DNA from: an uncultured Gammaproteobacteria bacterium
Lineage (GTDB): Bacteria > Patescibacteriota > Patescibacteriia > UBA9934 > CAMTUG01
Length of the DNA: 64,000 nt
Reading direction: 5' to 3'
Assembly (NCBI GenBank): GCA_964588955.1
Contig: CAZPQJ010000001.1
Coordinates: 10,155-74,154 of the forward strand
Below are positions 7,232 through 55,274 of this stretch, one piece after another. Under the pieces are notes generated by a model. The model saw only the letters and a list, made by a program, of their open reading frames with translations. It was not told where the DNA came from and did no database searches. Made by a program: the position numbers and the translations under genes. Each line of letters begins with the position of its first letter. Positions within the stretch are counted from its first letter, which is position 1.

Positions 7232-7354
7232 GGGATTGGATAAAAAAGGAGAAAGGAGGAGAAAAAATAAAAAAGGCATGAGGCCTCCTGAAGACAGTGT
7301 AACAGGGGTGGGTGGCTTGGCAAGAGGATAAAGTCGGGTTAGGATAAGGGAACT

Positions 7355-8404: not shown

Positions 8405-8805
8405 CGACGACACATTCAGCCGAAGAGACAAAAGTGATTGCCGCGAACTTTGTGAAGTCACTCAAGGGCGGGGAGTTTATTGCGCTTATCGGAGATTTAG
8501 GATCGGGTAAAACGACGTTTGTGCAGGGAATGGCCGAGGCACTACGTTCACACGCCAAGGTAAAATCACCAACCTTCACCCTCATGAACATTTATCCGAC
8601 GGATCATCCAAAAGTTAAGCAGATTGTGCACATCGACTATTATCGCGTGCCAACAGCCCATGATGATTTAGCTTTGGAAGACTATCGCCGGCCAGACACG
8701 ATTATTGTCGCCGAGTGGCCTACCGGACGAGATTTAAAACAACATCCGATCGTTGTCCGTTTTGCCCACGGATCCCGACCGGATGAACGCACGATTTCTT
8801 TTTAA
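8401..8805 (+). CDS. tsaE: tRNA t6A biosynthesis ATPase TsaE (YjeE)
   Basis: 134 aa; P-loop GDLGSGKTTFVQG; ATGA overlap with tsaD. Confidence 0.85.
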   Translation: MTTTHSAEETKVIAANFVKSLKGGEFIALIGDLGSGKTTFVQGMAEALRSHAKVKSPTFTLMNIYPTDHPKVKQIVHIDYYRVPTAHDDLALEDYRRPDTIIVAEWPTGRDLKQHPIVVRFAHGSRPDERTISF

Positions 8806-8808
8806 TTT

Positions 8809-10548
8809 CTATTCCGCCACGCGGAAGACTTCGTCGACAGAAGTTACCCCGTCGATGGCTTTTAACAAACCATCTTGAACCATCGTCACCATCCCTTGTT
8901 TTAAGGCGATGTCGCGCATTTGATATTCCGAAACGTTGCCGGTGAGTACGGCTTGTTCCACGTCGGCGGCCATTTGTAGTAATTCATAGATGCCGACGCG
9001 GCCTTTGAATCCGCTATTGTTGCAGGCCTCACAGCCTTTGCCGCGATAAAATTTCATCGTTTCCAAGTTGACCACCTCGCCAGAGTTCGCCGGAATTTCT
9101 GACAAGAGTTTTTGCACACGAACAAGTACGTCAGGTTCAAGCGTAACTTCTTCTTTGCAGGCGGTGCAGATTTTGCGCACCAAGCGCTGGCCGATCATGG
9201 CGTTTAAGGCAGGTGCGAGCAAAAACGGCTTGACTCCCATGGAGAGGAAGCGGGGAATGGCTCCGGCGGCGTCGTTGGTATGGATCGTAGAGAGCATCAG
9301 GTGGCCGGTCAGCGAAGCTTGGATGGCGATCTCGGCCGTCTCTAGGTCGCGAATTTCTCCGACCATGACAATGTCTGGGTCTTGGCGGAGAATCGAACGC
9401 AATCCCTTGGCAAAGGTGTAATCTTTGGTGTGGTCAATCTGGCTTTGGTTGATCCCTTCCACTTTGTATTCAATTGGGTCTTCCAAAGTGATAATCTTCA
9501 CGTCTGGCGCGTTGAGTCGTTGGAGTACGGCGTAGAGCGTCGTCGTTTTACCAGATCCGGTTGGACCGGTGGTAATAATCATTCCATGGGGTTTCTCAAT
9601 TTCTTTGCGTAGTTTTTCAAACACGGGCGGTCGTAGTCCTAACTTTTCAAAATCCAATTTTACCGCCCCGGAGCGCAGTACGCGCATCACCACAGACTCG
9701 CCATAAGCTGTCGGCAGGGTAGAAGTACGCACGTCGATTTCTTCATCCTTCAAGTATATAGTAAAGCGCCCGTCTTGCGGTCGGTCGGTGATGTTGATTT
9801 TTAGTCCAGCGATCAATTTGATGCGGCTGACAATGCGCTTCCAGGATTCCGCGGGGAGCATGGCCACGTCTTGCAACAGGCCGTCGACGCGTAGACGGAA
9901 TTTGACTCCTTCTTCCTCGGCTTCAATATGCAAATCACTCGAATCGAGTTCCAAGGCAGCGGAAATCATCACGCTCAACACGTCAGTGGTTGAAGCACTC
10001 GTCAGCAATGTTTGCACGGCGGCAAAATCTTTGACCTGGCTGCGATAGCGCGTCATTTCTGCATCGGTAATTTTTACCCCTTTAATGACCTGCTTAATTT
10101 TTGGTAACGCGGCATACAGAGCTAAAGCTTTTTCTAAACTGTGTTCACTAATCGCGTAGACGGCGGCTGTTGCCTTATTGCGTTCTCCCAGCTGATAAAC
10201 AAGTTCGGTAACCGCCGGATCGTTGGGGGTAAGGGCGCCAACACGAATTTCTGTACCGCTAAAAAGAAAGGGAATGGCTTTGAGTGCCCGCGCTTGCTCT
10301 TCCGGCACCAGTGCCAGTGCTTCCGGGGAGACGGCATAGGAGGTGAGGTCCACATAACCGACCTGAAGTTGGGTGGCCAGATCTTTGGCGATTTTTTCCT
10401 TTTCCCCCGTTTGGATAGCGGTCATCTTTTGCTCAAACTTTTCGGTGGCGCTTGGCGGCGTCAACACAACCGGAGCGGCTTTTTTCGCCGGAACCGGAGC
10501 GGGTTGTTTTTTCAACAAGTCTTCAATGGAGGGGAGATCAGATGGCAC
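8809..10548 (-). CDS. pilB: type IV pilus / type II secretion assembly ATPase (GspE/PilB family)
   Basis: 579 aa; Walker A GPTGSGKTTTLYA; GspE-N-like N-terminal domain; C-terminal CxxC...CxxC zinc-binding motif. Confidence 0.9.
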   Translation of the reverse strand: MPSDLPSIEDLLKKQPAPVPAKKAAPVVLTPPSATEKFEQKMTAIQTGEKEKIAKDLATQLQVGYVDLTSYAVSPEALALVPEEQARALKAIPFLFSGTEIRVGALTPNDPAVTELVYQLGERNKATAAVYAISEHSLEKALALYAALPKIKQVIKGVKITDAEMTRYRSQVKDFAAVQTLLTSASTTDVLSVMISAALELDSSDLHIEAEEEGVKFRLRVDGLLQDVAMLPAESWKRIVSRIKLIAGLKINITDRPQDGRFTIYLKDEEIDVRTSTLPTAYGESVVMRVLRSGAVKLDFEKLGLRPPVFEKLRKEIEKPHGMIITTGPTGSGKTTTLYAVLQRLNAPDVKIITLEDPIEYKVEGINQSQIDHTKDYTFAKGLRSILRQDPDIVMVGEIRDLETAEIAIQASLTGHLMLSTIHTNDAAGAIPRFLSMGVKPFLLAPALNAMIGQRLVRKICTACKEEVTLEPDVLVRVQKLLSEIPANSGEVVNLETMKFYRGKGCEACNNSGFKGRVGIYELLQMAADVEQAVLTGNVSEYQMRDIALKQGMVTMVQDGLLKAIDGVTSVDEVFRVAE

Positions 10549-10559
10549 AGGCGGACAGA

Positions 10560-11561
10560 TTAGCGTTTGAGAAGATGTTTGGCGATCCGTTCGAGTTTGG
10601 AGACAATGCGGGAAGTTTTGCCGAAACGCTCATATAGATGATACCAGGCGGCATAGGTAAAACTGGTGGCAAAACCGAAGAGGGCAAGGACGATGAGACA
10701 CAAGAGGACGGCACCGAACGTGATGGTCAGAATCCACAAGAGGCCGGAACCAACCAAGATGGAAGCTTTAAGAAAAAGGAGATAGGGAACGGCGAACAAA
10801 AGAACAGCGGCAACGACGGCTCCGGAAAATATGGCGTTGATAAAAAAGAGCAGAACAGCCATTTCTGTGATCGGCAGCCAGTGACGAACGAGCACCTCGG
10901 CGCTGGCGCGAATGGATGCCTTCACCGTTTTCTTTTTTGCGATCGTTTCAATGACGCTGAAAATGGAAAGATAACTCACGAGCAATGCCAGGGGGATAAA
11001 CACGATCAGCACACTGAAGTTCACGAGTGCGTTGACGGTGGCGCTTGGGTGCGCGAGAATCGCGAAAAGCAGTGTTGCTCCAAGCGACAGAACAATCAGC
11101 ACTGCGCGAAAGAGCAGATCAATCGCCAGAACTTTTCCCAGTTCCCGTGTAGTACGGGAAAAGAGCGAGGGGATCTTTTTTTTGTGATCGAGCGCTGGAA
11201 TTGCTCCTACCAGTTCCGCTTGAGCGCACAAGGCAAGGACGCTGAGCAGCAACATGGCTAGCAGAATGCAGGTAACGGTAATAGTCAGTCGTGTTGGGGA
11301 CGTAAGAGCGATTTTTTGGACGTAGGCAAAAATCGTGGTGGCACCGGCGACGCTTTGTTCAAGATATCCGCGCAAGCCGGTGTGGAGTGCCTCGCCCTTG
11401 AAGGTATTGGCGACGATTTGAAAGACGGAGCCGCTATTGATAATCCCAGCTAACACACCAAAGATCCACAGTCGTTTGTGGTTCCAGGCGCTTTGCCAAG
11501 CTTGCCGTAAGATCGGCCGGTGCACGGCGAGTGTTTGTTTTCCTCCAGGCATATCCTCCAA
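10560..11561 (-). CDS. hypothetical polytopic membrane protein
   Basis: 333 aa, highly hydrophobic with at least 6 TM; immediately downstream of pilB on the same strand. Confidence 0.5.
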   Translation of the reverse strand: MEDMPGGKQTLAVHRPILRQAWQSAWNHKRLWIFGVLAGIINSGSVFQIVANTFKGEALHTGLRGYLEQSVAGATTIFAYVQKIALTSPTRLTITVTCILLAMLLLSVLALCAQAELVGAIPALDHKKKIPSLFSRTTRELGKVLAIDLLFRAVLIVLSLGATLLFAILAHPSATVNALVNFSVLIVFIPLALLVSYLSIFSVIETIAKKKTVKASIRASAEVLVRHWLPITEMAVLLFFINAIFSGAVVAAVLLFAVPYLLFLKASILVGSGLLWILTITFGAVLLCLIVLALFGFATSFTYAAWYHLYERFGKTSRIVSKLERIAKHLLKR

Positions 11562-11615
11562 AAAAAGATCGGAGCAGATGAAACCATCTGCTCCGCCATT
11601 TTACACTATTTATCC

Positions 11616-13454
11616 TTAAGTTGTCTGCTCGTGATAGTTGGGGTGGCTGGTGAAGAGGGCTTCGAACTCGTCTTTCTCCAGGGTTTCTTTAACCAGCAGT
11701 TCTTTGACAATGGCGTCCAAACGATCGCGTTTTTCGGTGATGATCTTTTTGGCCGTAGCCATGGCGTTGTTGATCATCCCCATGATTTCCTCATCAATCG
11801 CCTCAGCCCACTTTTCCGAGTAATCGCGGTTCTCGTGAATCTCACGACCCAAGAAGACCATCTCATCTGTTTTGCCAAAGGTGCGTGGCCCAAGTTTTTC
11901 ACTCATGCCGTATTTGGTGATGAGCTCTTTAGCCGTTTGGGTGGCACGGCGCAAGTCGTCGGACGCGCCGGTAGTCATGTCGCCAAAGACTAACTTCTCT
12001 GAAGTATAGCCCCCCAAAAGCACGGCCATCTCATCGATGAACTCGGCACGCATGTGCATCTTCTTGTCTTCAATTGGCAACTTCATGGTGTAGCCGGCGG
12101 CGCGACCTCGGCTAATGATGGAGATTTTGTGCACGGGATCGGCGTGAGGGAGTTCATGCGCCACTAAGGCGTGACCGGCTTCGTGATAGGCCGTGACTTC
12201 GCGTTCTTTTTTGGAGAGAATGTGGCTCTTGCGTTCGGGACCCAAAATAACTTTGTCTACCGACTCCAGCACTTCATTGAGTCCGATCGTTTTTTTGTTG
12301 CGGCGGGCGGCTAAGATGGCTGCTTCGTTCAACAAGTTGCCGAGGTCGGCACCAGAGAATCCAATGGTGCGTTCAGCAAGTTTTTTCAAATCAACGTCTT
12401 TGTCCATGGGTTTGTTGGCGGCGTGGATTTCCAAAATAGCCTGGCGATCTTTGAGATCTGGCAAGTCAATCATCACCCGGCGATCAAAACGTCCCGGACG
12501 CAACAAGGCGGGGTCCAGCACGTCGGGGCGGTTGGTGGCGGCAATGACGATGACGCCGAGGTTTGGATCAAAGCCGTCCATCTCCACCAAAATTTGGTTG
12601 AGGGTTTGTTCGCGCTCATCGTGTCCACCGCCTAAGCCCGCGCCACGTTGACGTCCAACGGCATCAATTTCGTCAATAAAGATAATACACGGAGCGGTTT
12701 TTTTGGCTTTGGCAAACAAATCACGCACCCGGCTGGCACCAACGCCTACAAACATCTCTACAAATTCCGATCCGGAAATATGATAGAACGGCACGTCGGC
12801 CTCGCCGGCCACTGCGCGTGTGAGCAATGTTTTGCCTGTTCCTGGAGAACCCATCAATAAGACTCCTTTTGGAATTTTCGCCCCTAATTCGGTGAACTTT
12901 TTTGGGTCACGTAAAAATTCAACGATCTCGGAGAGTTCTTCCTTGGCTTCTTTTACTCCGGCGACGTCTTTAAAGGTTACTTTGTTTTTTGTTTGATCAA
13001 CCTCGCGTGCTCCGGATTGTCCAAAGCTCATCGCCTTTTGATTGGAGCCTTGCAACTGACGCACCATAAACCAAAAGACCACAATCAGAACGAGAAGTGG
13101 CAAAAGAGAAGGGAGGATTGATTTCAAAAAATATTGCTTGCCGCTTAAATCTTTGACGTTGATAGCCACCTTGGAGAGTTCTTCGGGGGTGACTCCGTAG
13201 CTTGTAAGCAGCTCTGGGAGTGATTGCCCCGCTTCTTTTTTGGTGGTTTGTGTCGTGCCATCTGTAAGACTAGTTGTAATCGTGTCTTGCTCGACATCGA
13301 TGTGATCAACGGTGCCGGCATGGATTTCTTCCACCACCACGTTTATCGCCACTTCCGCCGGTTTAGGCGCGGACAAGTTTACCGTGGAAAAAATGGCACC
13401 AATGGCGATAATGGCAATCAGGAAAAGAATGATATTTTTGGATAGTGGTTTCAT
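11616..13454 (-). CDS. ftsH: ATP-dependent zinc metalloprotease FtsH
   Basis: 612 aa; AAA Walker A GSPGTGKT, second region of homology, HEAGHA zinc-binding motif. Confidence 0.95.
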
Positions 13455-45577: not shown

Positions 45578-46036
45578 ATGGCTCAGACACAGCGCACCCT
45601 CATTTTAATCAAGCCAGACGCGCTCCAGCGCGATTTGGTCGGCGAGATCGTTCACCGTTTTGAGCGTAAAGGGCTCAAAATTGTTGCCATGAAAATGATT
45701 CAGCTTGGCGACGCGGTTTTGGACGTCCACTACGCTCATTTGGCCGATAAACCGTTCTTCCCAGGCTTGAAGGACTTCATGATGTCTTCACCAGTCATTG
45801 CTATGGTGCTGGAAGGTGTGGAGGCCGTTGGAGCTGTGCGCTTGATTTTGGGTCCCACCAAAGCCTACGAAGCCGATGCCGGATCGATTCGCGGCGACTT
45901 GGCCATTGCCGTGGCTTCCAACCTGGTGCACGCTTCCGATTCTGCGGAGTCGGCGGTAGCAGAAATTGATCGATTCTTCGCGCCAAACGAGCTGTTTGCC
46001 TACGAGAAAATCACCGACAAGTTGTTCAACGACTAA
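45578..46036 (+). CDS. ndk: nucleoside diphosphate kinase
   Basis: Start refined to MAQTQRTLILIKPDA; NDK active-site His region (VHASDS). Confidence 0.9.
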   Translation: MAQTQRTLILIKPDALQRDLVGEIVHRFERKGLKIVAMKMIQLGDAVLDVHYAHLADKPFFPGLKDFMMSSPVIAMVLEGVEAVGAVRLILGPTKAYEADAGSIRGDLAIAVASNLVHASDSAESAVAEIDRFFAPNELFAYEKITDKLFND

Positions 46037-46057
46037 TCGACATATCCACACGTCGAT

Positions 46058-46262
46058 TTGACGGTAAAATAGCGCGACCGTATCATAGACTCCGTTATGA
46101 AATCACAAGCCTGGCACACCTTTACGCTTACGACCCGCGCAATTGATTGCGTCGATTTTGCGCTTCCGTATGCGTTAGCGATGGCCAGGATGGGACACTA
46201 AGGTTTCTTAGATCAATTCCAACCGACCATCGCTCGAGAAGAGTGGTGGTCGGTTTCGTTTC
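46058..46262 (+). promoter_or_regulatory. promoter plus leader L0: TTGACG-17-TATCAT, 34-codon upstream ORF (46097..46201), hairpin plus T-rich tract
   Basis: ATGAAATCA start 10 nt after the -10; peptide MKSQAWHTFTLTTRAIDCVDFALPYALAMARMGH; hairpin CCGACCA...TGGTCGG at 46223..46253 followed by TTTCGTTTCG. Confidence 0.45.
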
Positions 46263-46323
46263 GTGGTCGGATTCTGTGGCGAAGGTTGTTGCCGTAGACT
46301 CCGCCCTCTAAACCCAGGGTGGA

Positions 46324-46530
46324 ATGGAGCTGTCGATGACGAATGGTGATCGCACCGCCCCGACGACGGGCACGAACTCCACTTTCCGCTGCGCCGCCCT
46401 GCGTAGTCTTTCCGATGTGATGTTGGGTGACCCGCCGACCCAGCCGCTGCCGGCGCTTCAGCCGCCGCTCGATCGACACATGGTCGGTGTCTGCTGCACC
46501 CCCAATCCGCCCAACCGGCACCGTCTCTAG
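46324..46530 (+). CDS. small high-GC hypothetical protein (sORF1), Pro-rich C-terminus
   Basis: 68 aa; GC3-rich; GGGTGGA just upstream of ATG; followed by a hairpin (46562..46590) homologous to the one after sORF2. Confidence 0.4.
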   Translation: MELSMTNGDRTAPTTGTNSTFRCAALRSLSDVMLGDPPTQPLPALQPPLDRHMVGVCCTPNPPNRHRL

Positions 46531-46665
46531 TCTCTGTTCTTTCCTTCGTTTTCTTCCCGCGCCGGCTCGTCGAGTTTCTCTCCGAGCCGGCCGACCACAC
46601 CTTTGCGACGTGTAACTGTGGATCGGAATCCTCCGATTCATTGAACCCACCGCAGAGGATTCCCC

Positions 46666-47139
46666 ATGCCGAAGTCTCAGCGCCGATACGACTCTCTCGT
46701 GTTTGTGGACGTCTCGTGGTGCGACCCGGACCGTCGCCGTGGACCGAACCGCCTGACCATTTCCCAGAAGGTCGCGGACGAGCTCGGTTTCAGCGCTGGG
46801 TGTACGGTCGTACTGCGTGTCTACACCAGCATGCCTACGAAGACCACTGTCATCCGTCCGTTCCCCGCCTACGATCTCCTGGGCTCATGCCAGGTTGTGG
46901 TCAAGGAACAGATCGATCGCCCGAGGCTTGCTGGGGAGCTTTTGTCCAAAGCCAAGGAACAGGGTGGTGTCATCGTTTCTGCCGTCAGGGTGCGAGACAA
47001 GGGTCGCATCATCTGCTACAGGCACAACGATCAGAAGTTGACGCGTTCCGGAATCAATTCCGTTTCCGTCAGTCGTGCCAACGCCGCCAACGTCGACGAA
47101 AACACGGACAGCTTCGTCCCCATCCCACAGACCGCCTAG
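46666..47139 (+). CDS. small high-GC hypothetical protein (sORF2), possibly with AbrB/SpoVT-like swapped-hairpin segments
   Basis: 157 aa; GAGGA RBS 8 nt upstream; GC3-rich; NRLTISQKVADELGFSAGCTVVLRV resembles a looped-hinge DNA-binding motif (weak, by eye); terminator hairpin at 47162..47192. Confidence 0.5.
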   Translation: MPKSQRRYDSLVFVDVSWCDPDRRRGPNRLTISQKVADELGFSAGCTVVLRVYTSMPTKTTVIRPFPAYDLLGSCQVVVKEQIDRPRLAGELLSKAKEQGGVIVSAVRVRDKGRIICYRHNDQKLTRSGINSVSVSRANAANVDENTDSFVPIPQTA

Positions 47140-47204
47140 TTCGCTCCTTCTTCTTCCTCGTGACTGGCTCGTGAGTTCTCTCCGAGCCAGTCCAGCCCCT
47201 TTTA

Positions 47205-47436
47205 TTGACAATTATTGACCAGTTTTGTATCCTCAACCCATCGCTATGAAATCAATTGCCTTGTACTTTAGCCTCGGCTTTAGCGGGTTTACTCCCGGGG
47301 CGGTTGATGTTGCATAGAAGCTAGATTCTTTGAACATCAGGCCGCCGCAAGGGCGGTTTTTTGGTTGCTGATTTGATCAAGACTTGTCCGAACAAGTCTT
47401 GCAGAGTCTACAACCTTCCGTGCCTCAGGGGTTCCC
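47205..47436 (+). promoter_or_regulatory. promoter plus leader L1 for ATP-grasp 1
   Basis: TTGACA(47205)-N4-TTGACC, 17-nt spacer, TATCCT(47228); uORF 47246..47317 (MKSIALYFSLGFSGFTPGAVDVA); hairpin CCGCC-GCAAG-GGCGG plus T6 (47343..47362); second perfect 9-bp-stem hairpin 47378..47401. Confidence 0.55.
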
Positions 47437-48711
47437 ATGAACGACGATCGCGACGCTGTCTCCTGTTCCGTCGTAGCTGCCAGCGCGTCGACTGCCACCG
47501 TGCGCAAGCCCGTCTGCTGGGCGCATCTGACCGGCGACGTCTGCGACTTCGACACCGGGCATGGTCCGATTCTCTCCGCCCTCTCGGTGCGAGCCCTCCC
47601 GCTCGCTCGCAAGGGCGACATCGTCATCCTGCCCGCGCCTGGCGAGATTCCGCAAGATCTCGGCTACCACCAGAGCTTCGCTCTCGGTCCTGACCCGTTC
47701 GACGTCCACTGGGCGGATCTCACCGGCCACGAGGAGGGGCGTGTCACCGAAGGTCTTCCGATCACGAAGGGAATGTGCATCGACGTCATGTCGGGCACCT
47801 CCCGCGACGTGCGCAAGATCGCCGAACATTACGGCGCTCGGGTCGTTGCTCCGGATCTCGATGTTTGTCGGAATGCCAATTCCAAGAGTTGGCAGCAGGA
47901 GCTCGTGATCAAGATCGGAGGAGTTCCGATCCCTCTCGGCGGTTCCGTTCTCAACGTTGAGGAGGCACGTCGAGTGGTCGATGAACTGCGCACCGCCGGC
48001 TACCCTGTCGTGCGCTTCAAGCCGAAGAACTCGGCCAGTGGCATCGGACAGGTAGTCATCGGCGGCAACTTCGAAAGCTACGGTGACCTCATGTACCCCG
48101 GCGTCGTGCAGGCGCAGATCAACGTTGTGTCCTGCCACAGCGTGCAATTCTTCGTGAACGCTCGGCACCTCGCCGAGTTGGTGCACGAAGGGCCGAAGGC
48201 TCAGGTCTTTGAGGTCATCGATCAGATTGTCGATGGCAACGGCGGCTACGAAGGCTCGGTCTATCCGTCGATGCTGATCGACGATGAGAAGAATCGTCTG
48301 CAGACCATGGCCTGGCGTATCGTCAGTCGTCTGGCCGTGGAAGGATTCAACGGTTACGGCTCGGTCGACTTCATGCGCGATACGAGCGGCAACTTCTGGT
48401 TCGCCGAGGTCAACGGCAGGAAGACCGCTACCTACTACGCGGCGATGATCTCCCGCCGGATCTTCGGCAAGGTCGTGCCGTTCGTCCTGCGTTCTTTCCG
48501 CTTCCCCAAGCACATGCCCTTCCCGGCCTTCGGGAAGCACATGGGTGCCTGGATGTTGCGCCCGGGATCGAGCGAGGGGTTCTTCCCCTTCGCCTACCTG
48601 CCGCGCTTCGGCTTCAGCTACGGCGTGACTTTCAGCCCTGATGCCGAGAAGGTTCGGCGTCTCGACGCCCAGGTTCGCCTCAATATGGCGCCGCTCACGC
48701 GTAGCGCCTGA
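47437..48711 (+). CDS. ATP-grasp superfamily ligase, paralog 1 (subfamily A)
   Basis: 424 aa; flexible-loop motif FKPKNSASGIGQVV (K-P-x-x-x-S-x-G-x-G) and FWFAEVNGRKTA (E-V-N-x-R); N-terminal pre-ATP-grasp-like region; ANSKSW motif shared with paralog 3; GC about 65%. Confidence 0.7.
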   Translation: MNDDRDAVSCSVVAASASTATVRKPVCWAHLTGDVCDFDTGHGPILSALSVRALPLARKGDIVILPAPGEIPQDLGYHQSFALGPDPFDVHWADLTGHEEGRVTEGLPITKGMCIDVMSGTSRDVRKIAEHYGARVVAPDLDVCRNANSKSWQQELVIKIGGVPIPLGGSVLNVEEARRVVDELRTAGYPVVRFKPKNSASGIGQVVIGGNFESYGDLMYPGVVQAQINVVSCHSVQFFVNARHLAELVHEGPKAQVFEVIDQIVDGNGGYEGSVYPSMLIDDEKNRLQTMAWRIVSRLAVEGFNGYGSVDFMRDTSGNFWFAEVNGRKTATYYAAMISRRIFGKVVPFVLRSFRFPKHMPFPAFGKHMGAWMLRPGSSEGFFPFAYLPRFGFSYGVTFSPDAEKVRRLDAQVRLNMAPLTRSA

Positions 48712-48763
48712 GCGCTACTTCAACCGCCGGCCGGGGTACACCCTCGGCCGGCATCATCTTTAT

Positions 48764-49025
48764 TTGACAACTCTTGATCTACTCTTTACGATAAGGATAA
48801 AGCTATGTCATCAATGAATTTCAGCATCGACGTTTCTGAATCGTTGTCTTCAACGCCAAAGGTTGTTGCCGGTTTGCTTTTGAACCTCGACCTTCTTCCT
48901 TAGGGTCGCCTGGTTCCTTGTTACATCATGGAGTTGGACGACCCGATTGAATGGGTCGTTTTTGTTTGTCTGTGCTGTTGACTAGGGGTCTGAATGATCA
49001 GATCTCTTGAAACAGCGGAGTCAAC
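48764..49025 (+). promoter_or_regulatory. promoter plus leader L2 for ATP-grasp 2
   Basis: TTGACA(48764)-N4-TTGATC, 17-nt spacer, TACGAT(48787); AAGGA RBS then uORF 48805..48903 (MSSMNFSIDVSESLSSTPKVVAGLLLNLDLLP); hairpin ACGACCC-GATTGAAT-GGGTCGT plus T5 (48939..48964); long-range stem GTTGACT...AGTCAAC abutting the start codon. Confidence 0.55.
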
Positions 49026-50357
49026 ATGAACCGTACCTGCCTGCTGCACTGCCTTAGCGAATACGGACACGACGCTCAAGGCAGCGTGACGACCTCGATC
49101 GATGGTGTAGGTCTCTATGCCGGCCGTGGACTGGTTGTTCCTGCGCAGCTCAAGATCGTGCCGGATCACCCGGTCCTTTCTGCCGCTTGCGACTACATGC
49201 GGCGTGTAGGGATCGGTCCCAAGCGTATCGTTCACGTCCCGAGCATGGGATCACTCTACGACGGGGTACGTGCCAGTTCTGAAGCACAGCGGGCGATCGT
49301 CGAGCACGTTGCTCAGGACGGAGACGTCGAGTTCTACATCCCTGGCCCGGCAGCATGGGCACTCTGTCACGAGCTCGGTGTTCCTCAGAGTCGGGTGCGC
49401 AATCAACGGCCGGAGCTCGCGCCCGAGACCGACAAGGTGGGGATGCGGCGTTTGGGCGAGCAGCTCGGTTTGCGTACCTGTTTTCCTTCGCACGCATTCT
49501 CGCGTGGCAAGGAGGAAACGATGCGTGTGGCTCGCACGCTGTTCGCTGAGGGTCATGCACGTATCGTCATCAAGCGGCCGGACTTGGCGAGCGGCGAAGG
49601 GCAGCTGGTGATCGGCTCGATTAACGATCTCTCGCAGCAGGAAGGCGTGGCCTTTCTCCATCGCTATGCCGTGGACGGCGTCGAGTTGGTGGTCGAAGCG
49701 TGGTGGGAAGGGGAGGATTTCTCCGCGGTCTTCGAAGTCGATTTCGACGAAGTTCGGCTCATGCACATGAGCGGCCAGTTCATGCGTTCTGCCGATGGCA
49801 AGACCCACATGGGCAACTTTCTCGGTAATCGGCCGAACCAAGTATTTCCCAGTGTCGGGTCCTGTTCTTGGCATAATCGTATGGAGGTGGCTTGCCGACA
49901 GATGATCAGCGTCTGGCAACAGCGTGGCTATCGCGGCAAGATCGGCTTCGACGGCAAGGTGCGTCCTCATGCGGGAGAGTTCGTTCTGCTCGAAGTCAAC
50001 GCGCGTCCGTCGGCGAGCATCTTCGCCCGCTACGTGCTGGAGCAGGTGCGCCGCAGCGATGATGAAGAGATCGGCGTCTCCATGCTGAGTGTCACGCCGC
50101 CGCGCGCTTTCTCGATTGAAGAGATGGTGGCACTTCTCGGAAGTGACGCCTACAATCCGAGTACTCGCCGCGGAGTGATCATCGGCAACCCTGTTCGGAT
50201 GGGCGACATGCGTCATCCCGAGACGCCGATCCATGTGGTCGCTGACTCCGTTTCTCAGTCGATCGAGACCGCGCTTACCATCAAGCGTCGTGTCGAAGGC
50301 GATCGTTTCGACCCGGTAACGGTCCCTGACTTCACCTCTTGGCAGATGGCCAGCTAG
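49026..50357 (+). CDS. ATP-grasp superfamily ligase, paralog 2 (subfamily B)
   Basis: 443 aa; IKRPDLASGEGQLVIG (K-R-P-x-x-x-S-G-x-G) and FVLLEVNARPSAS (E-V-N-x-R-P); clearly similar along its whole length to paralog 4. Confidence 0.75.
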   Translation: MNRTCLLHCLSEYGHDAQGSVTTSIDGVGLYAGRGLVVPAQLKIVPDHPVLSAACDYMRRVGIGPKRIVHVPSMGSLYDGVRASSEAQRAIVEHVAQDGDVEFYIPGPAAWALCHELGVPQSRVRNQRPELAPETDKVGMRRLGEQLGLRTCFPSHAFSRGKEETMRVARTLFAEGHARIVIKRPDLASGEGQLVIGSINDLSQQEGVAFLHRYAVDGVELVVEAWWEGEDFSAVFEVDFDEVRLMHMSGQFMRSADGKTHMGNFLGNRPNQVFPSVGSCSWHNRMEVACRQMISVWQQRGYRGKIGFDGKVRPHAGEFVLLEVNARPSASIFARYVLEQVRRSDDEEIGVSMLSVTPPRAFSIEEMVALLGSDAYNPSTRRGVIIGNPVRMGDMRHPETPIHVVADSVSQSIETALTIKRRVEGDRFDPVTVPDFTSWQMAS

Positions 50358-50410
50358 TTGTCTGCCTCCATTCTCTTACGAACCAGCCGTCGACACGGCT
50401 GGTTCTTGCG

Positions 50411-50626
50411 TTGACAGAGCGTGTTGATTGTGTTAAGTTTCTCTTGTTATGGAATGTATTGTCGCAAACAGCAACAGCTATTATTACGCTCTCGCCACCA
50501 CGAGGGTGCTGATGCGTTAACACATATTTGTGTCGATGCCGCCGCCCTCGGGCGGTTTTTTGTTGTGTGTTTTATGAAGAACGGAAGCGTTCTGTTCTTC
50601 TCAAACCCACAACGTTCGAGGTCAAC
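50411..50626 (+). promoter_or_regulatory. promoter plus leader L3 for ATP-grasp 3
   Basis: TTGACA(50411)-N7-TTGATT, 17-nt spacer, TAAGTT(50434); uORF 50449..50520 (MECIVANSNSYYYALATTRVLMR); hairpin CCGCCC-TCG-GGCGG plus T6 (50541..50561); second hairpin GAAGAAC..GTTCTTC (50576..50600). Confidence 0.55.
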
Positions 50627-51775
50627 ATGTCTGCGTTCTTTCACCTTACCGGTAATGACGTCGCTCTTCCGTCGAGCGACTACAAGGTTCTGCGCCACTA
50701 CGCTCTGCGTGCGCTTCTTCCCGCCGGAGCTGACGACACGGTCATTTTGCACGGTCTGCCGTACCCCACCGATCTGCTCCGCCTGTTCAATCGTCTAGAG
50801 ATCGGACCGCACCCTGATCGTGTCTTCACGCACCTGTCGCGAGCGCGTGGGACGACGCTGCAAACCTTCAGTGGTGCCGCGCCGCGGGTGTGGGCCCTTA
50901 GCGATCAATTCGGTTGCCGCCTCGACGCACCCTCGTTCGAGGTCTGCATCACTGCCAATAGCAAGTCCTGGTTCCAGCGTACCTTCGGTGATAACACGTT
51001 GGCTTCGTTGCCTCCGGGGGCCGTCTGTCGTTTCGCCGACGTACCGATGCGTGCTTCCGCTCTCATGCGTGAGCACGGTCGCGCGGTACGTCTCAAGGAT
51101 CCCCACTCCGCGAGCGGCATCAAGCAGATGGTCCTGCCGTTGGGATCAGACGTGTCTGCCCGCCTGCCGCATGGACGAATGGATCAACAGGTCGTCCTCC
51201 AAGTCGAACAGCATCGCGACGCTGACGCCAGTGTGCAAGGTCATGTTACGCGTGACGGGGAAGTCATCGTGGGACAGGTGACGGGTCAGCACATCAGCGG
51301 ACAGGGAAGTCATGGTGGCAACTTCTTTCCTTCTGGTTTGCCGGAATGGGCGGAAGTGGCCATGCGTGACTCCACGCGCGCGGTGGGCGAAGGACTCGTA
51401 CGTCTCGGCTACTTCGGTCCGTACTCGGTTGACTTCGTCATCGACTTTGAAGCTTGCCGCGTCTACGCCGTGGAGTGCAACGCCCGTGTGACCGCCCCGC
51501 AGTATCCAATCCGTGCCTTGCAGACCTGGTACGGAGAAGCCGAGCATAGGCCGTTCGATCTCTTCAGCGTGCGTGTGGCATCGGGTACGAGTGTCGACGC
51601 AGTCGCGAATGCGCTAAATGGCACGCTCTTCTCGCGCGTGCTCGGCATCGGAGTCGTGCCGTTCGTCGTTCTGCCTCAGTTCGGCCTTGTCGTCTGCACT
51701 GTCTTCGCCACGAGCGAAGCGCATCGCGACTACCTTTCGAGCGAAGTCAGACACCTGCTCTTGCCCCTGCGCTAA
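50627..51775 (+). CDS. ATP-grasp superfamily ligase, paralog 3 (subfamily A)
   Basis: Start refined to MSAFFHL (GTCAACATG context identical to paralog 2); RLKDPHSASGIKQMV loop and YAVECNARVTAPQ (E-C-N-x-R); ANSKSW motif shared with paralog 1. Confidence 0.65.
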   Translation: MSAFFHLTGNDVALPSSDYKVLRHYALRALLPAGADDTVILHGLPYPTDLLRLFNRLEIGPHPDRVFTHLSRARGTTLQTFSGAAPRVWALSDQFGCRLDAPSFEVCITANSKSWFQRTFGDNTLASLPPGAVCRFADVPMRASALMREHGRAVRLKDPHSASGIKQMVLPLGSDVSARLPHGRMDQQVVLQVEQHRDADASVQGHVTRDGEVIVGQVTGQHISGQGSHGGNFFPSGLPEWAEVAMRDSTRAVGEGLVRLGYFGPYSVDFVIDFEACRVYAVECNARVTAPQYPIRALQTWYGEAEHRPFDLFSVRVASGTSVDAVANALNGTLFSRVLGIGVVPFVVLPQFGLVVCTVFATSEAHRDYLSSEVRHLLLPLR

Positions 51776-51821
51776 GTTCTTCCATCGCGCCCTCTTCTCA
51801 GGGGGGCGCGATTTATCGTTC

Positions 51822-52035
51822 TTGACCACTTTCCAGTGGTGTGATAGTTTTTTCTTGTTATGCAGATCGCCTCGAACAATGCACGCCGCGCCGCCACGAG
51901 CTATTGCTTCGCTGCGATTATTATTGATCTCGTTATTGCCTAGGGCCGTGTTCTTTTGTTGAAACGACGAAAGAAGACGGCCCTGCGCAAGCGGGGTCAT
52001 TTTTGTTCCTTCACCCTCATGCATAGGGGAATGCC
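51822..52035 (+). promoter_or_regulatory. promoter plus leader L4 for ATP-grasp 4
   Basis: TTGACC(51822), 17-nt spacer, TAGTTT(51845) with the same TTTCTTGTTATG context as L3; uORF 51860..51943 (MQIASNNARRAATSYCFAAIIIDLVIA); 13-bp-stem hairpin 51942..51984 and T5 at 52001. Confidence 0.5.
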
Positions 52036-53382
52036 GTGAATCTGATCCATCTCTTCGACATGCACTGCTACCAAACCGGTGAAGCCTCAGCTGATGGCCG
52101 TCAGACCCTGGCGGGGATCGACGATCGCATCGGCGACTACGCCGCGCGTGCTCTTCTTCTGCCCGGCAAGGCAGCCATTGTGCCCAAAGATGTGCTCATC
52201 GACGCGAGTGTCGCAGACCTCCGCACCTGGGGAATCGGTCCCCAAGAGATCATTCAAGTGCCTGGTGATCGAGGACTGTACAGCGGCGTTCTCGACTGTT
52301 CGCGCACTACGGCGATTCTTCGTCATCACGTCAACCTGGGTGGCAAGATCCAGGTCTTCAATCCCACGGCGAGTTGCTGGTCCTTTTGCGAGCAGTTGGG
52401 GGTCCACCGAGGCGTCCTGCACAACCGTCCGGAAGATCTAACGGCACTGACCGACAAGATCGGCTTCCGTCGTCTGGCTGCGGAGCTTGGCCTGCGCCGA
52501 GCGTTTCCCGAACATCGCTTCGCGACGCAAGCGGAAGAAGTCCGTGCGGCGGCGCGCGAGCTGTTCCTTCTCGGCCATCGACAGGTGTTCATCAAGCGGC
52601 CGGACCTGGCGAGTGGAACGGGGATGATCAAGGTTGGCGCTCGCGGTCTTAACGGTCGCAAGCTGAATACCTTTCTGTCCCGTTACGCTGGAAGCGTGGA
52701 GTTGATCGTCGAAGCGGCCTGGGGACAGGAAGACTATTCGTTTGTCTTCGACGTAAACGAAACGTCGTGGACGCTCGAGTACGTTACCGGCCAGTTCATG
52801 GAAGCCGACCGTAAGACCCATGCCGGCAACTTCCTTGGAGCAACCCCGAAGGACTGTCTGCCTGCTGATTGGAATAAGATCAAGCGAGGGAAGTTCATCT
52901 GCACGGTTCTTGATTTCATGACGCCGATGATCGACCAGTTGCGTAAGCGCGGTTATCGCGGCAAACTCTGCGTAGATGTGCGCGGCAATCATCGTGGCGA
53001 AGCGCGTCTGCTCGAGCTCAATGCTCGCGCTTCCGCGAGCAACTTCCCGCACGCCGTGCTCGAACAGGTCCGCAATCATTATGGTCACAAAGAGCTCGGT
53101 GCTGTGATGCTCAACGTCTGGCTCCCGAACCAGGTAGAGCGCTACGAAGATCTGCGCGCCCTCATCGGTAACGACTTGTTCGATCCGACCACCGGTTTCG
53201 GAATCGTCCCTGGCAACATCTTGTGTGTGCGCCACCAACGCCCCAAGTTCAGCCCGGTAATGGTGCAACCGAGCGTGGCCGGCGCGGTCGCGGCGCTGCT
53301 CGCGTTCAAACAGCGCATCGAACGCCGGCGTCCGGATCTCATCTACCCCGATCACTTAGCGACCGTCATGGTCGCTAAGTAA
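52036..53382 (+). CDS. ATP-grasp superfamily ligase, paralog 4 (subfamily B), GTG start
   Basis: 448 aa; FIKRPDLASGTGMIKVG and ARLLELNARASAS; AGGGGA RBS 8 nt upstream of the GTG; terminator hairpin GTCGAAGC-TTCGTC-GCTTCGAC downstream. Confidence 0.75.
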   Translation: MNLIHLFDMHCYQTGEASADGRQTLAGIDDRIGDYAARALLLPGKAAIVPKDVLIDASVADLRTWGIGPQEIIQVPGDRGLYSGVLDCSRTTAILRHHVNLGGKIQVFNPTASCWSFCEQLGVHRGVLHNRPEDLTALTDKIGFRRLAAELGLRRAFPEHRFATQAEEVRAAARELFLLGHRQVFIKRPDLASGTGMIKVGARGLNGRKLNTFLSRYAGSVELIVEAAWGQEDYSFVFDVNETSWTLEYVTGQFMEADRKTHAGNFLGATPKDCLPADWNKIKRGKFICTVLDFMTPMIDQLRKRGYRGKLCVDVRGNHRGEARLLELNARASASNFPHAVLEQVRNHYGHKELGAVMLNVWLPNQVERYEDLRALIGNDLFDPTTGFGIVPGNILCVRHQRPKFSPVMVQPSVAGAVAALLAFKQRIERRRPDLIYPDHLATVMVAK

Positions 53383-53483: not shown

Positions 53484-54254
53484 ATGAAAGTACTCCTCTT
53501 ACAGATTCGTCGCGATGTCATGAAAGAGCATGAACGCAAATGTGTTGTAGCTAAGTCCGGCTTGTCGGAACAAGAGATTGTTGCGTTCGACATCTTTGAG
53601 CGGTTGATCACTGCGGACGATTTGAATGGTTACGATGCCTTGGTTGTCGGGGGTAGTGGTGGATACTGCGTTTCTGAACGTGAGATTCCCGCCGAGATCG
53701 ATGCGATGGAGGGGGTTATTCGTGAAGCACGCCAACGCCGCATGCCTGTGCTCGGTATTTGTTTTGGGCATCATTTGATTGCTGAAGCGCTTGGCGGCGA
53801 AGTACGCCAGGATCGCGATCGTCAGGAAGTGGGAACTTTTGAAGTGGCGCAAACTGCGGAAGCAAAAGTTGATCCAATATTTTCGCACCTACCGGCAAGC
53901 TTTTTGGCACAGGAGGGACACAAAGATCATGTCACGAAATTGCCACCAGGTGCGGTGCATCTTCTCTCAACTCCCACCTCGCCGTTGCAAGCCTTCACCT
54001 TTCCCGGCGAGCCTATTTACAGCATGCAGTTGCATCCAGAGTTGTCGAAAGCAGATGTGTTCGAACGCCTCGATTTTTATCGTTCGTTGTATTTGAAATC
54101 GCAAATGGTCGAAGGGACAACAGATGTGGGTGCGGGGAGTACAGAATTTGACACGATTATGAGTGCTACTATGGACACGCCAGAGGCGGAAAAGATTTTG
54201 CATCTATTTTTTGAAGAAGTTGTTGATAACGGAAAACGTTATCCACACGCGTAG
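53484..54254 (+). CDS. class I glutamine amidotransferase-like protein (standalone GATase1)
   Basis: 256 aa; nucleophile elbow GICFGHHL (Cys), His in MQLHPE, overall GATase1 pattern; GC about 50% (host-like). Confidence 0.7.
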   Translation: MKVLLLQIRRDVMKEHERKCVVAKSGLSEQEIVAFDIFERLITADDLNGYDALVVGGSGGYCVSEREIPAEIDAMEGVIREARQRRMPVLGICFGHHLIAEALGGEVRQDRDRQEVGTFEVAQTAEAKVDPIFSHLPASFLAQEGHKDHVTKLPPGAVHLLSTPTSPLQAFTFPGEPIYSMQLHPELSKADVFERLDFYRSLYLKSQMVEGTTDVGAGSTEFDTIMSATMDTPEAEKILHLFFEEVVDNGKRYPHA

Positions 54255-54629
54255 AGGATAACTTGGGTGTAACTTTTTTGACGCACCCATTGACCGTGCT
54301 ACGCTACTAGTGTCTCAGGGTCAATCGGGTTCGGTCTTGGATCAACGGTTCAGCAACACATTCCTTTAACGCCGCGACTGCGGTTACGGCAAAAGGAATC
54401 GGCACGCACTGACCCGCGGAAACGATCACCACGGATGACTTGGGGGACTGCCCCATGAGAAGTCATAAACAAGGCGTCTGCCTTGATCGTCCGCCCGCGC
54501 GGAACAGCGACAGTAGGATCCTTATCGCCAGACCACCCGATTGAACCCTGGGGCGCAAATTTCGCCTTTGTGTTTCGACACGTTTCGTTTTCGACGTTTT
54601 GCGTCGATTTTTTGTTACAATGGGCATAT

Positions 54630-55274
54630 ATGCTTCGCAGCCACTTTACGAGAACGGAATGGCAAATACTACGGCAACTGAATACTCCCAAAAAGATTCA
54701 GGACTTTTTGAATACCCTGCCGCAAAGTTTTAGTAAGCACGGGCAAGAGTGTCGCTCGCCTCGGCGGGTGTTGCGTGAGGGAAGCGCCTATTGTTTGGAA
54801 GGAGCGATGCTTGCCGTCTTGGCTCTGCGTGTTCATGGACATCGACCACTGCTCTTAGATCTCACCTCGCATGATAGTGATGATGATCACGTTGTTGCTT
54901 TGTTCCAACACAACGGTTGCTGGGGGGCGATTTCCAAAACGAATCACGCGGTCTTGCGCTATCGCGAGCCGATCTACCGATCCGTTCGCGAACTTGTGAT
55001 GAGTTACTTTCATGAATACTTTTTGCAGCGCGGTGGCAGAAAAACTTTACGTTCCTACGCCGTTGCGGATGTGTCTAAATTTGATCGTCGAGGATGGATG
55101 ACCGATGAAGAAGATCTGTGGTACATCGCTGAGCACTTGTGTGACATTCCGCACAAGCAAGTTTTAACGCGATCGCAAATCGCCGGTTTGCGTCCAGCCG
55201 ACGCGATTGAAATCCAAGCGGGGGAGTTGCTTGAGTGGCGAAAGGGTCAGGGATCTTTTAAGAAAAGTGTATAG
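54630..55274 (+). CDS. transglutaminase-like / papain-fold cysteine peptidase domain protein (tentative)
   Basis: Candidate catalytic Cys in GSAYCLEGAMLAVLALRVHG, downstream His (DHVVALFQHNGCW) and Asp; start uncertain (TTG at 54483, or ATG at 54630 directly after an extended -10 TGTTACAAT). Confidence 0.4.
   Translation: MLRSHFTRTEWQILRQLNTPKKIQDFLNTLPQSFSKHGQECRSPRRVLREGSAYCLEGAMLAVLALRVHGHRPLLLDLTSHDSDDDHVVALFQHNGCWGAISKTNHAVLRYREPIYRSVRELVMSYFHEYFLQRGGRKTLRSYAVADVSKFDRRGWMTDEEDLWYIAEHLCDIPHKQVLTRSQIAGLRPADAIEIQAGELLEWRKGQGSFKKSV

Follow-up and report, generated by a model that had tools for sequence, protein, structure and literature searches.

Layout of the locus between ndk and the amidotransferase gene

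Within a 64,000-nucleotide (nt) stretch of Patescibacteria DNA (contig CAZPQJ010000001.1, positions 10,155 to 74,154 of the forward strand; the whole stretch is called the window, and positions are counted from its first letter), four divergent ATP-grasp paralogs, AG1–AG4 (19–38% mutual identity), lie between ndk (45579–46036) and a class-I glutamine amidotransferase (GATase) gene (53484–54254). Each is preceded by a leader in the same order: the terminator hairpin of the preceding gene, a sigma-70-like promoter with a 17-nt spacer, an ATG, a short open reading frame (sORF), a GC hairpin followed by a T-run, and a Shine–Dalgarno (SD) sequence. There are five cassettes of this one layout, L0–L4, with L0 (46058–46265) lying 3′ of ndk, and their folds score z −3.6 to −5.6 against dinucleotide shuffles (Table 1). 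A sequence-only reading had described this shared layout (17-nt spacer, ATG 9–12 nt after the −10, very short upstream ORF, hairpin with T-run) together with a related copy, L0, upstream of small ORFs, and these elements lie where it put them. The short ORFs, for which it gave 23–33 codons, encode 34, 23, 32, 23, and 27 aa in L0–L4, and the hairpin with T-run was found in all five leaders, including L4, for which it had listed none. Other details of that description need correction: the doubled −35 element is seen in L1 and L2 (TTGAYC at +10 bp) and in L3 (TTGATT at +13) but not in L0 or L4; TTTCTTGTTATG, said to be shared by L3 and L4, is exact in L4 only, with L3 reading TCTCTTGTTATG; and the short shared strings ATGAAATCA and GTCAACATG are incidental, the former occurring five times in the window and the latter matching briefly around the SD and start codon in two paralogs.

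The paralogs have few relatives within easy reach. Word-indexed protein searches returned the query itself or the orthologue of one paralog only, and a search of a 5.8-billion-protein collection found no close relatives beyond the paralogs themselves; the wider family was reached with an all-against-profile HMMER search of 1.84 billion representatives, which gave 34 proteins at E<1e-30. An alignment of type-A ligases (the group of AG1 and AG3) led to nine genome loci and 11 metagenome loci, few of them true orthologues, and one of type-B ligases (the group of AG2 and AG4) to no loci among GTDB representatives. The contigs of these relatives repeat the gene order of the window (UDP-glucose dehydrogenase, comEC, metallo-β-lactamase hydrolase, ndk, one to four ATP-grasp paralogs, GATase, murA), individual loci showing most, not all, of it. 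Those records that carry a name are metagenome-assembled genomes (MAGs) of Candidatus Uhrbacteria or of a “Patescibacteria group bacterium,” which places the window in a CPR/Patescibacteria genome. Distant Saccharimonadia homologues (L014–L020) have no such leader and were set aside.

We searched the window and ~243 kb of related loci (307 kb in all, on both strands) for a composite pattern of promoter, ATG 8–14 nt past the −10, sORF of 10–50 codons, and terminator within 90 nt, and recovered exactly L0–L4 in the window and, outside it, leaders of the same locus type only. The hairpin with T-run follows the sORF stop codon by 19–35 nt, with stem energies of −11.9 to −26.2 kcal/mol (L0–L4), and an intrinsic terminator lies between sORF and gene in 5/5 window leaders and 17/19 leaders overall. 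In 16 of these 19, a TTGAC(A/G/C)-16/18-TAnnnT promoter stands 9–13 nt before the sORF ATG, without an SD; the AG genes themselves carry SD sequences. Since the promoter ends so close to the ATG and no SD is present, the leader peptide is probably translated from a leaderless or near-leaderless 5′ end. No promoter-like site other than the one before the sORF was found between the preceding terminator and the AG gene, so that AG expression needs read-through, and sORF and AG gene are presumably carried on one transcript.

Table 1 Positions of the leader elements, ligase genes, and adjoining features in the window
Feature	Position	Strand	Remarks
L0 promoter TTGACG-17-TATCAT	46058-46086	+	ATG 10 nt after −10
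L0 leader sORF, 34 aa, MKSQAWHTFTLTTRAIDCVDFALPYALAMARMGH	46097-46201	+	Thr-rich stretch 46118-46135; amino-acid assignment uncertain
L0 antiterminator 5′ strand	46172-46195	+	pairs with terminator 5′ arm; duplex −20.9 kcal/mol, p 0.013
L0 terminator hairpin, −26.2 kcal/mol, then TCGTTTCGTG	46221-46265	+	interrupted T-run
Doubtful 68-aa ORF between L0 and the 157-aa ORF	46324-46530		
157-aa ORF, no family match	46666-47139	+	first clear gene 3′ of L0
L1 promoter TTGACA-17-TATCCT	47205-47233	+	second TTGACC at 47215; ATG 12 nt after −10
L1 leader sORF, 23 aa, MKSIALYFSLGFSGFTPGAVDVA	47246-47317	+	three UUU Phe codons within 47267-47290
L1 antiterminator 5′ strand CGGGGCGGTTGATG	47296-47309	+	final sORF codons; pairs with 47333-47346
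L1 intrinsic terminator AGGCCGCC-GCAAG-GGCGGTTT + T-run	47339-47362	+	
L1 second hairpin, 10-bp perfect stem	47378-47401	+	z −3.2
AG1, ATP-grasp paralog, 424 aa	47437-48711	+	type A
AG1 gene-end terminator	48726-48752	+	
L2 promoter TTGACA-17-TACGAT	48764-48792	+	second TTGATC at 48774; ATG 12 nt after −10
L2 leader sORF, 32 aa, ...VVAGLLLNLDLLP	48805-48903	+	Leu run, 6/8 codons, 48874-48897
L2 antiterminator 5′ strand	48902-48917	+	begins within stop codon; pairs with 48930-48944
L2 intrinsic terminator GACGACCC-loop-GGGTCGTT + TTTGTTTG	48937-48968	+	
L2 second hairpin	48984-49007	+	z −5.1
AG2, ATP-grasp paralog, 443 aa	49026-50357	+	type B
AG2 gene-end hairpin	50382-50403	+	
L3 promoter TTGACA-17-TAAGTT	50411-50439	+	TTGATT at +13; ATG 9 nt after −10
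L3 leader sORF, 23 aa, MECIVANSNSYYYALATTRVLMR	50449-50520	+	Tyr codons UAU UAU UAC, 50479-50487
L3 region 1 ACGCTCTCG (50486-50494) and region 2 CGAGGGTG (50501-50508)	50486-50508	+	region 2 pairs with region 1 or with terminator CGCCCTCG (50543-50550)
L3 intrinsic terminator GCCGCC-CTCG-GGCGGT + TTTTT	50541-50561	+	
L3 second hairpin	50576-50600	+	z −4.4
AG3, ATP-grasp paralog, 382 aa	50627-51775	+	type A; AlphaFold predicted local distance difference test (pLDDT) 96.8
AG3 gene-end terminator	51784-51812	+	
L4 promoter TTGACC-17-TAGTTT, TG-extended −10	51822-51850	+	ATG 9 nt after −10
L4 leader sORF, 27 aa, MQIASNNARRAATSYCFAAIIIDLVIA	51860-51943	+	Ile run, AUU x4, 51917-51937
L4 antiterminator hairpin	51942-51984	+	5′ strand begins in stop codon; duplex −21.6 kcal/mol, p 0.003; 3′ strand (51965-51984) overlaps terminator 5′ arm
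L4 intrinsic terminator GGCCCTGC-GCAA-GCGGGGTC + ATTTTTG	51979-52005	+	
AG4, ATP-grasp paralog, 448 aa	52036-53382	+	type B
Class-I glutamine amidotransferase / gamma-glutamyl-peptidase-like gene	53484-54254	+	

Codon runs and alternative pairings in the leaders

In four of the cassettes the sORF carries, shortly before the RNA switch, a cluster of codons for one amino acid, a feature that the sequence-only reading did not mention: three UUU Phe codons in L1 (MKSIALYFSLGFSGFTPGAVDVA), the Leu cluster LLLNLDLL in L2 (...VVAGLLLNLDLLP), the Tyr cluster YYY in L3 (...NSNSYYYALATTRVLMR), and the Ile cluster IIIDLVI in L4 (...AAIIIDLVIA), with a weak Thr signal (HTFTLTT) in L0. By composition alone these sORFs are only moderately significant in the window, those of L1 and L0 being weak. 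Across orthologous leaders of seven other loci, the codon runs are kept while the rest of the peptide varies. In the window and its syntenic relatives, Phe runs read PFFFGGF[CP]FF, FTYFFFRF, and NFIFPLFTFGF; Leu runs LLLNLDLL, SLSLNLLL, and NNLLGLLSLLDL; and Ile runs IIIDLVIA, TIINLTIA, SIIEIVIPMIILGIIILI, and others. The Phe leaders 5′ of type-A ligases are MNNRNTALFTYFFFRFCGDGLSVA (L003), MTRRSLPFFFGGFPFFQKAGGFVMGQG (L008), MNRRHTPFFFGGFCFFKKVGGFVVNSR (Uhrbacteria, L012/L021), and MTTQNFIFPLFTFGFPQAGWFRR (L033); Leu leaders are MNCLTHHSTSLSLNLLLT (L003) and MHRDFRSNNLLGLLSLLDLPVVRFGRL (L033); and Ile leaders are MAKMYKNTSTIINLTIA (L003), ...KIISNVILFVILIP... (L008), ...SIIEIVIPMIILGIIILI... 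(L021), MSNIFSTIIFLDLRKFILAVIFG (L024), and ...LALIIIRSG... (L036). Evolutionarily, the leader type follows the enzyme tree, with type-A genes that have a leader carrying Phe or Tyr leaders in 6/6 cases and type-B genes carrying Ile or Leu leaders in 11/11. The codon runs would thereby assign AG1 to Phe (weakly in the window, clearly in orthologues), AG2 to Leu, AG3 to Tyr, and AG4 to Ile, and L0, uncertainly, possibly to Thr. A finer mapping of Leu and Ile leaders onto separate enzyme subclades was tried and is not supported, as they do not fall into monophyletic groups on the tree and only the split between aromatic and branched-chain leaders holds.

Structurally, minimum free energy (MFE) folds show that the terminator 5′ arm can pair instead with the last sORF codons or the stop-codon region: GGGGCGGUUGAUGUU with AACAUCAGGCCGCC in L1, (UA)GGGUCGCCUGGUUCC with GGAGUUGGACGACCC in L2, and (U)AGGGCCGUG...GACGGCCCU in L4, while in L3 CGAGGGUG can pair either with upstream CGCUCUCG or with terminator CGCCCUCG. 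We scored this competition as the duplex energy of the terminator arm against the upstream leader, relative to 1000 dinucleotide shuffles, for 17 leaders from the window and the syntenic Patescibacteria loci. All 17 had z<−1.2 (median −2.88), 13 of them with p<0.05, and the combined Fisher probability was 1.5e-16. This statistic replaced an earlier one, the gain in MFE on adding the terminator arm relative to shuffles, which was noisy (Fisher 0.001, median z −0.6). As a negative control, the statistic was applied to 30 terminators at gene ends in these loci; their median z was +0.34 (Mann–Whitney p 2.4e-7 against the leaders), and because this control shows no competitor helix, the helix belongs to leader terminators alone.

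Covariation was assessed in an alignment of six Phe leaders, a small sample for which the structure was read from one of the sequences. In the terminator, 83% of cells were paired, four pairs showed compensatory changes, and 0/500 shuffles matched the covariation score; in the antiterminator, 85% of cells were paired, compared with 31–74% when it was slid. One such compensatory set is GGGCGG/CCGCCC/GCGG in L008 against GGGUGG/CCACCC/GGUGG in L021. Positionally, the antiterminator 5′ strand is in every case 3′ of the main codon run and located at the stop codon or shortly ahead of it; modelling a ribosome mid-run gave sequestration of at least 60% of the terminator arm in 14/17 leaders.

The cassette layout also occurs at genes of other kinds. 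At locus L035, a clear Phe leader (MTYSHTATFFFFMTTVVQS + terminator, 7260–7416) stands before a 59-aa ORF and a 361-aa non-ATP-grasp protein (7492–8852), so the cassette is not exclusive to ATP-grasp genes. A third conserved family of 374–384 aa (L008 4601–5725, L021 5579–6718, L024 5511–6665), which has no Pfam match and is undetected by the ATP-grasp profile, lies between ndk and the type-A ligase in several relatives and is absent from the window; its 374-aa member in L008 has its own promoter, sORF (MSCVCVQPTVKMYVRFLWKQGGFTMDA), and terminator.

Three further observations concern the leaders themselves. First, the sequence-only reading had placed a second strong hairpin in each of the four leaders before the paralogs. 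This hairpin, which lacks a T-run and lies between the attenuator terminator and the SD, is significant in L1–L3, marginal in L0 (z −1.4; 46268–46303), and absent in L4; extra hairpins are also found in relatives (L008 7457-, L021 6915-, L033 5915-, 8319-, and 10063-), many copies having z −3 to −5. It is dispensable for the attenuation model set out below, and might serve mRNA stabilisation, processing, or pausing. Second, four promoters in the window have a second TTGAYY 10–13 bp past the −35 (47205–47220, 48764–48779, 50411–50429, and 54278–54295), a direct repeat spaced by about one helical turn that is not generally conserved in relatives and might either bind a regulator or be left over from a duplication of the promoter. 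Third, in relative L003 (3006–3013) the Phe-leader ATG overlaps the final ndk codons (...TCTATGAATAA) without a separate promoter, and this attenuator is apparently fed by ndk transcription, in an initiation context that is ordinary rather than leaderless.

Probable leader-peptide attenuation and its alternatives

From this anatomy, we consider it very likely that each cassette is a ribosome-mediated (leader-peptide) transcription attenuator. Transcription would start a few nt before the sORF AUG, giving a leaderless or nearly leaderless message without an SD, and a ribosome would translate the leader peptide close behind RNA polymerase. With ample cognate aminoacyl-tRNA, the ribosome would reach the sORF end and mask the stretch, at the stop codon or ahead of it, that could bind the 5′ arm of the terminator, such that the GC hairpin and U-tract could form and transcription would end before the ATP-grasp gene. 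With cognate aminoacyl-tRNA scarce, it would instead stall upstream on the clustered codons, leaving the sORF 3′ end free to pair with the terminator 5′ arm as an antiterminator, and polymerase would enter the gene. The anatomy, the alternative pairings, their conservation, and the link between leader and enzyme clade are observations; sORF translation, termination and read-through, the direction of the response, and the role of the enzymes are what we infer from them. The sequence-only reading had proposed a transcription-attenuation or riboswitch-type leader: the first half of that proposal is supported, with a terminator/antiterminator alternative in every leader and statistical backing for it, and the second half falls away, as Rfam gave no match and conservation centres on one amino acid's codon run. 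That reading had also made its case depend on alternative, covarying structures and on conservation in related genomes, and both were found, the former through the duplex shuffles, the gene-end control, and the Phe-leader covariation, and the latter in that the cassette is kept in syntenic loci of several Patescibacteria lineages. Its suggestion of one shared mechanism specific to this system is not upheld, since the leaders differ (Phe, Leu, Tyr, Ile) and the mechanism is a classical one.

Several findings weigh against attenuation, or against parts of it. Within the window, the individual antiterminator p-values of L1–L3 are only 0.09–0.12, the U-tracts of L0 and L4 are imperfect, and the codon runs of two leaders are modest: three Phe in 23 aa in L1 (p 0.06), and four Thr in 34 aa in L0, which is not significant. 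The Phe assignment of L1 thus leans on its orthologues, and the Thr assignment of L0 is a guess. With the ribosome modelled on the stop codon rather than mid-run, at least 60% of the terminator arm is still sequestered in 6/17 leaders; these six have long tails past the antiterminator strand, and for them the argument would need kinetic coupling, with the ribosome crossing the strand while the terminator is being made. A region 1:region 2 (1:2) anti-antiterminator helix is lacking in most leaders, being found only in L3 and the L021 Phe leader, and the antiterminator forms in 14/17 leaders with no modelled ribosome. Since most leaders are without the 1:2 helix, an untranslated leader would read through. 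Such a helix is not required by all described attenuators. From a physiological perspective, none of the regulated genes belongs to those known for amino-acid biosynthesis, charging, or transport, and synthesis of Phe, Leu, Tyr, or Ile is probably beyond the organism, which leaves the physiological logic unexplained. Finally, the Leu and Ile leaders do not fall into monophyletic enzyme subclades, and the longer Ile leaders (36–42 aa) also resemble small transmembrane peptides.

The alternative that survives best, which we nonetheless regard as improbable, treats the sORFs as substrates or precursors, akin to those of RiPPs (peptides made on the ribosome and modified after translation), of the adjacent PGM1-like ligases, with the hairpin a leaky terminator that sets the precursor:enzyme ratio. 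The enzymes lend it some plausibility, as PGM1, an enzyme that joins an amino acid to peptides of ribosomal origin, and an “ATP-grasp peptide ligase” are among their closest solved relatives; in addition, one small ORF precedes each ligase, and the peptide type correlates with the enzyme clade. Putative clusters for ATP-grasp RiPPs (graspetides) have been predicted in genomes of the Candidate Phyla Radiation (CPR) (PMC8939145) and favour the same idea, but the CPR graspetide branches described there differ in gene context. Against it, orthologous peptides keep only the one-amino-acid run, with no conserved leader or core motif. Nor is there a protease, a transporter, or a non-proteinogenic amino-acid pathway at the locus, and no graspetide (MdnB/C) ligase is among the 60 PDB profile matches listed. 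The same cassette moreover precedes non-ATP-grasp genes (those after L0, the L035 Phe leader, and the 374-aa gene of L008), and a leaky terminator needs no upstream competitor helix, which the leader terminators have and the gene-end terminators do not. Two specific pathways of this kind were considered and rejected. For a graspetide cluster, the sORFs share no core motif, protease and transporter are missing, and no MdnB/C-type ligase is found among the matches listed; for a PGM1-type pheganomycin pathway, the ligase fold is present, but there are no donor-biosynthesis or protease genes and the peptides are unconserved past the codon runs.

It is very improbable, in our estimate, that the leader instead works as a riboswitch for a metabolite or tRNA (in the manner of a T-box, for example) or is recognised by an RNA-binding protein, with the sORF irrelevant. 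In its favour, many riboswitches likewise use a terminator/antiterminator pair as their expression platform, the leaders show strong structure, and the conserved-looking second hairpin is left unexplained. However, Rfam gave no match at the gathering score in the whole window and only noise at E<=10 in 45900–52200, no family being recovered among Phe_leader, Leu_leader, Thr_leader, His_leader, Trp_leader, and the riboswitch/T-box families, and no conserved aptamer-sized structure lies 5′ of the antiterminator, where the region is the sORF itself. That sORF starts 9–13 nt after the −10 in 16/19 leaders, and conservation upstream of the antiterminator concerns codon content and neither the sequence nor the structure. 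Equally improbable is the proposal that the sORFs are independent small hydrophobic or membrane (for example, toxin-like) genes, with AG genes expressed by incidental read-through: each sORF does have its own promoter and terminator, and several Ile-type peptides (36–42 aa) have a transmembrane-like hydrophobic stretch, but the short leaders (17–24 aa; MAKMYKNTSTIINLTIA, MNCLTHHSTSLSLNLLLT) are too short to cross a membrane, a transmembrane-like character is missing from the Phe, Tyr, and Leu leaders, the downstream genes have no alternative promoter, and the antiterminator pairing, with its fixed position relative to codon run and stop codon, is left unexplained.

Among known systems, leader-peptide attenuation as proposed here is most like that of the enterobacterial attenuators (pheL/pheA, pheM/pheST, leuL, ilvL, thrL, trpL, hisL), which have the same codon-run sORF, terminator, and antiterminator sharing the terminator 5′ arm. 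The peptides, too, resemble what we take to be their Escherichia coli counterparts: PFFFGGFCFF is close to pheL IPFFFAFFFTFP, GLLLNL to leuL GLLLLNA, and VILIPATAAL to ilvL VIIIPPCGAAL, with a likeness to pheM as well. The cassettes differ from these attenuators in their Patescibacteria/CPR host, in matching no Rfam leader family, in their leaderless-like sORF without an SD, in the extra hairpin past the terminator in many copies, and in regulating single ATP-grasp ligases, not biosynthetic operons or synthetases; unlike trp-type attenuators, they usually have no 1:2 anti-antiterminator helix. Paralogs each placed under a different amino acid also have precedents in E. coli, in the ilvBN and ilvGMEDA attenuators and in aroF/aroG/aroH, but those isozyme sets are biosynthetic and their chemistry is known.

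As far as the available description goes, the closest described analogue of a leaderless sensor is the set of mycobacterial leaderless polycysteine sORFs reported to act as Cys-responsive attenuators, in which a codon run in a leaderless sORF senses supply and controls genes on the same transcript (bioRxiv 10.1101/834739). Compared by that description only, they belong to another phylum and concern another amino acid, whereas the present leaders have an explicit terminator/antiterminator and stand before a set of paralogs, each with a leader for a different amino acid. Our literature searches returned no description of leader-peptide attenuation in Patescibacteria/CPR or before ATP-grasp genes. 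The proposed mechanism is a textbook one, and the regulon is the interesting part.

The ATP-grasp ligases and their neighbourhood

Functionally, AG1–AG4 gave only weak, sub-threshold ATP-grasp matches in Pfam and NCBIfam, and the proteins nearest to them go by the name “hypothetical protein.” The AlphaFold model of AG3, though, matched 8ynd (a Streptomyces ATP-grasp peptide ligase), 8yi6 (BesA), and 3wvq (PGM1) with template-modelling (TM) scores of ~0.76 and Foldseek E ~1e-19, followed in rank by PurK/PurT and biotin carboxylases. Sequence profiles gave the same order, the PDB matches to the PGM1/BesA/peptide-ligase group having E 1e-13 to 1e-16. The catalytic residues K113, K157, D269, E283, N285, and R287 (AG3 numbering) are invariant or nearly so, and the paralogs share the fold and the Lys/Glu/Asn/Arg nucleotide/Mg ligands that define the ATP-grasp superfamily. 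AG1–AG4 therefore look like active carboxylate–amine ligases of PGM1/BesA type, and given the fold match and the conserved residues, they are probably amino-acid or peptide ligases. They share the fold of PGM1, BesA, and 8ynd at an identity of only ~15–19%, and unlike these three they are not surrounded by a secondary-metabolite cluster, lying instead in a conserved housekeeping neighbourhood (UDP-glucose dehydrogenase, comEC, ndk, paralogs, GATase, murA). The GATase-like neighbour, which adjoins the paralogs in most syntenic loci that reach past them, bears a likeness to GuaA-type GATase subunits and also, for the greater part of its length, to plant gamma-glutamyl peptidase 1; a partnership of BesA-like gamma-glutamyl ligase and gamma-glutamyl peptidase is a lead, not a result.

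Tentatively, and with nearly as much belief as doubt, we posit that these genes form a hitherto unrecognised amino-acid-specific starvation regulon of Patescibacteria, in which PGM1/BesA-like ligases (type A aromatic, type B branched-chain) are each switched on when the cognate tRNA is undercharged and are partnered with the GATase/gamma-glutamyl-peptidase-like neighbour. To our knowledge, the Patescibacteria/CPR group is generally thought to lack amino-acid biosynthesis, and because of this the enzymes of such a regulon would not synthesise amino acids but define a new way to salvage, trap, or exchange them. Possibly, gamma-glutamyl or other dipeptides of Phe, Tyr, Leu, and Ile would be made at the expense of ATP and hydrolysed later; another possibility would be an amino-acid-specific “demand” molecule aimed at a host. 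By “guilt by regulation,” the codon runs would label the four unannotated paralogs Phe, Leu, Tyr, and Ile, and the leaders split the family into aromatic and branched-chain clades. The sensing of, and response to, shortage of single amino acids in ultra-small, presumably auxotrophic bacteria, a problem hard to study, would thereby become biochemically testable, with four enzymes, four candidate substrates, and one neighbouring hydrolase/amidotransferase. The cassettes would also offer compact amino-acid-responsive regulatory parts, ~150–190 nt from the −35 to the end of the T-run.

Elsewhere around the locus, the ~400 nt (46270–46660) between the L0 terminator and the 157-aa ORF hold only the doubtful 68-aa ORF, and a hairpin at ~46560–46597 is closely like the terminator 3′ of the 157-aa ORF (47162–47192) and may reflect a decayed gene or a duplicated terminator. 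The 157-aa protein has no match in Pfam, NCBIfam, or PDB and does not resemble the 164-aa protein encoded at the corresponding place in locus L006. That locus has five tandem paralogs of ~260–296 aa 3′ of its type-A ligase (7285–11986), with no Pfam match for the two that were scanned; four of the five spacers are 70–84 nt, and each spacer opens with a G-rich/T-run motif. In a Candidatus Uhrbacteria MAG (locus L033, 7452–7923), a HicB/HicA toxin–antitoxin pair lies between the ligase genes under Phe and Ile control. Beyond the GATase gene, positions 54278–54612 of the window (+ strand) have a promoter-like TTGACG-16-TACGCT, with a second TTGACC 12 nt downstream, followed by ~300 nt without a plausible ORF. 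A long-range 5′/3′ helix closes this region (MFE −116.5 kcal/mol, z −3.2), which terminates in two hairpin-plus-T sites (54550–54568 and 54591–54607) and is without a counterpart in Rfam. Lying between the GATase gene and the following ORF, it is a candidate for an as yet unannotated structured RNA; the real start of that ORF is probably near 54631–54659, not at 54483.

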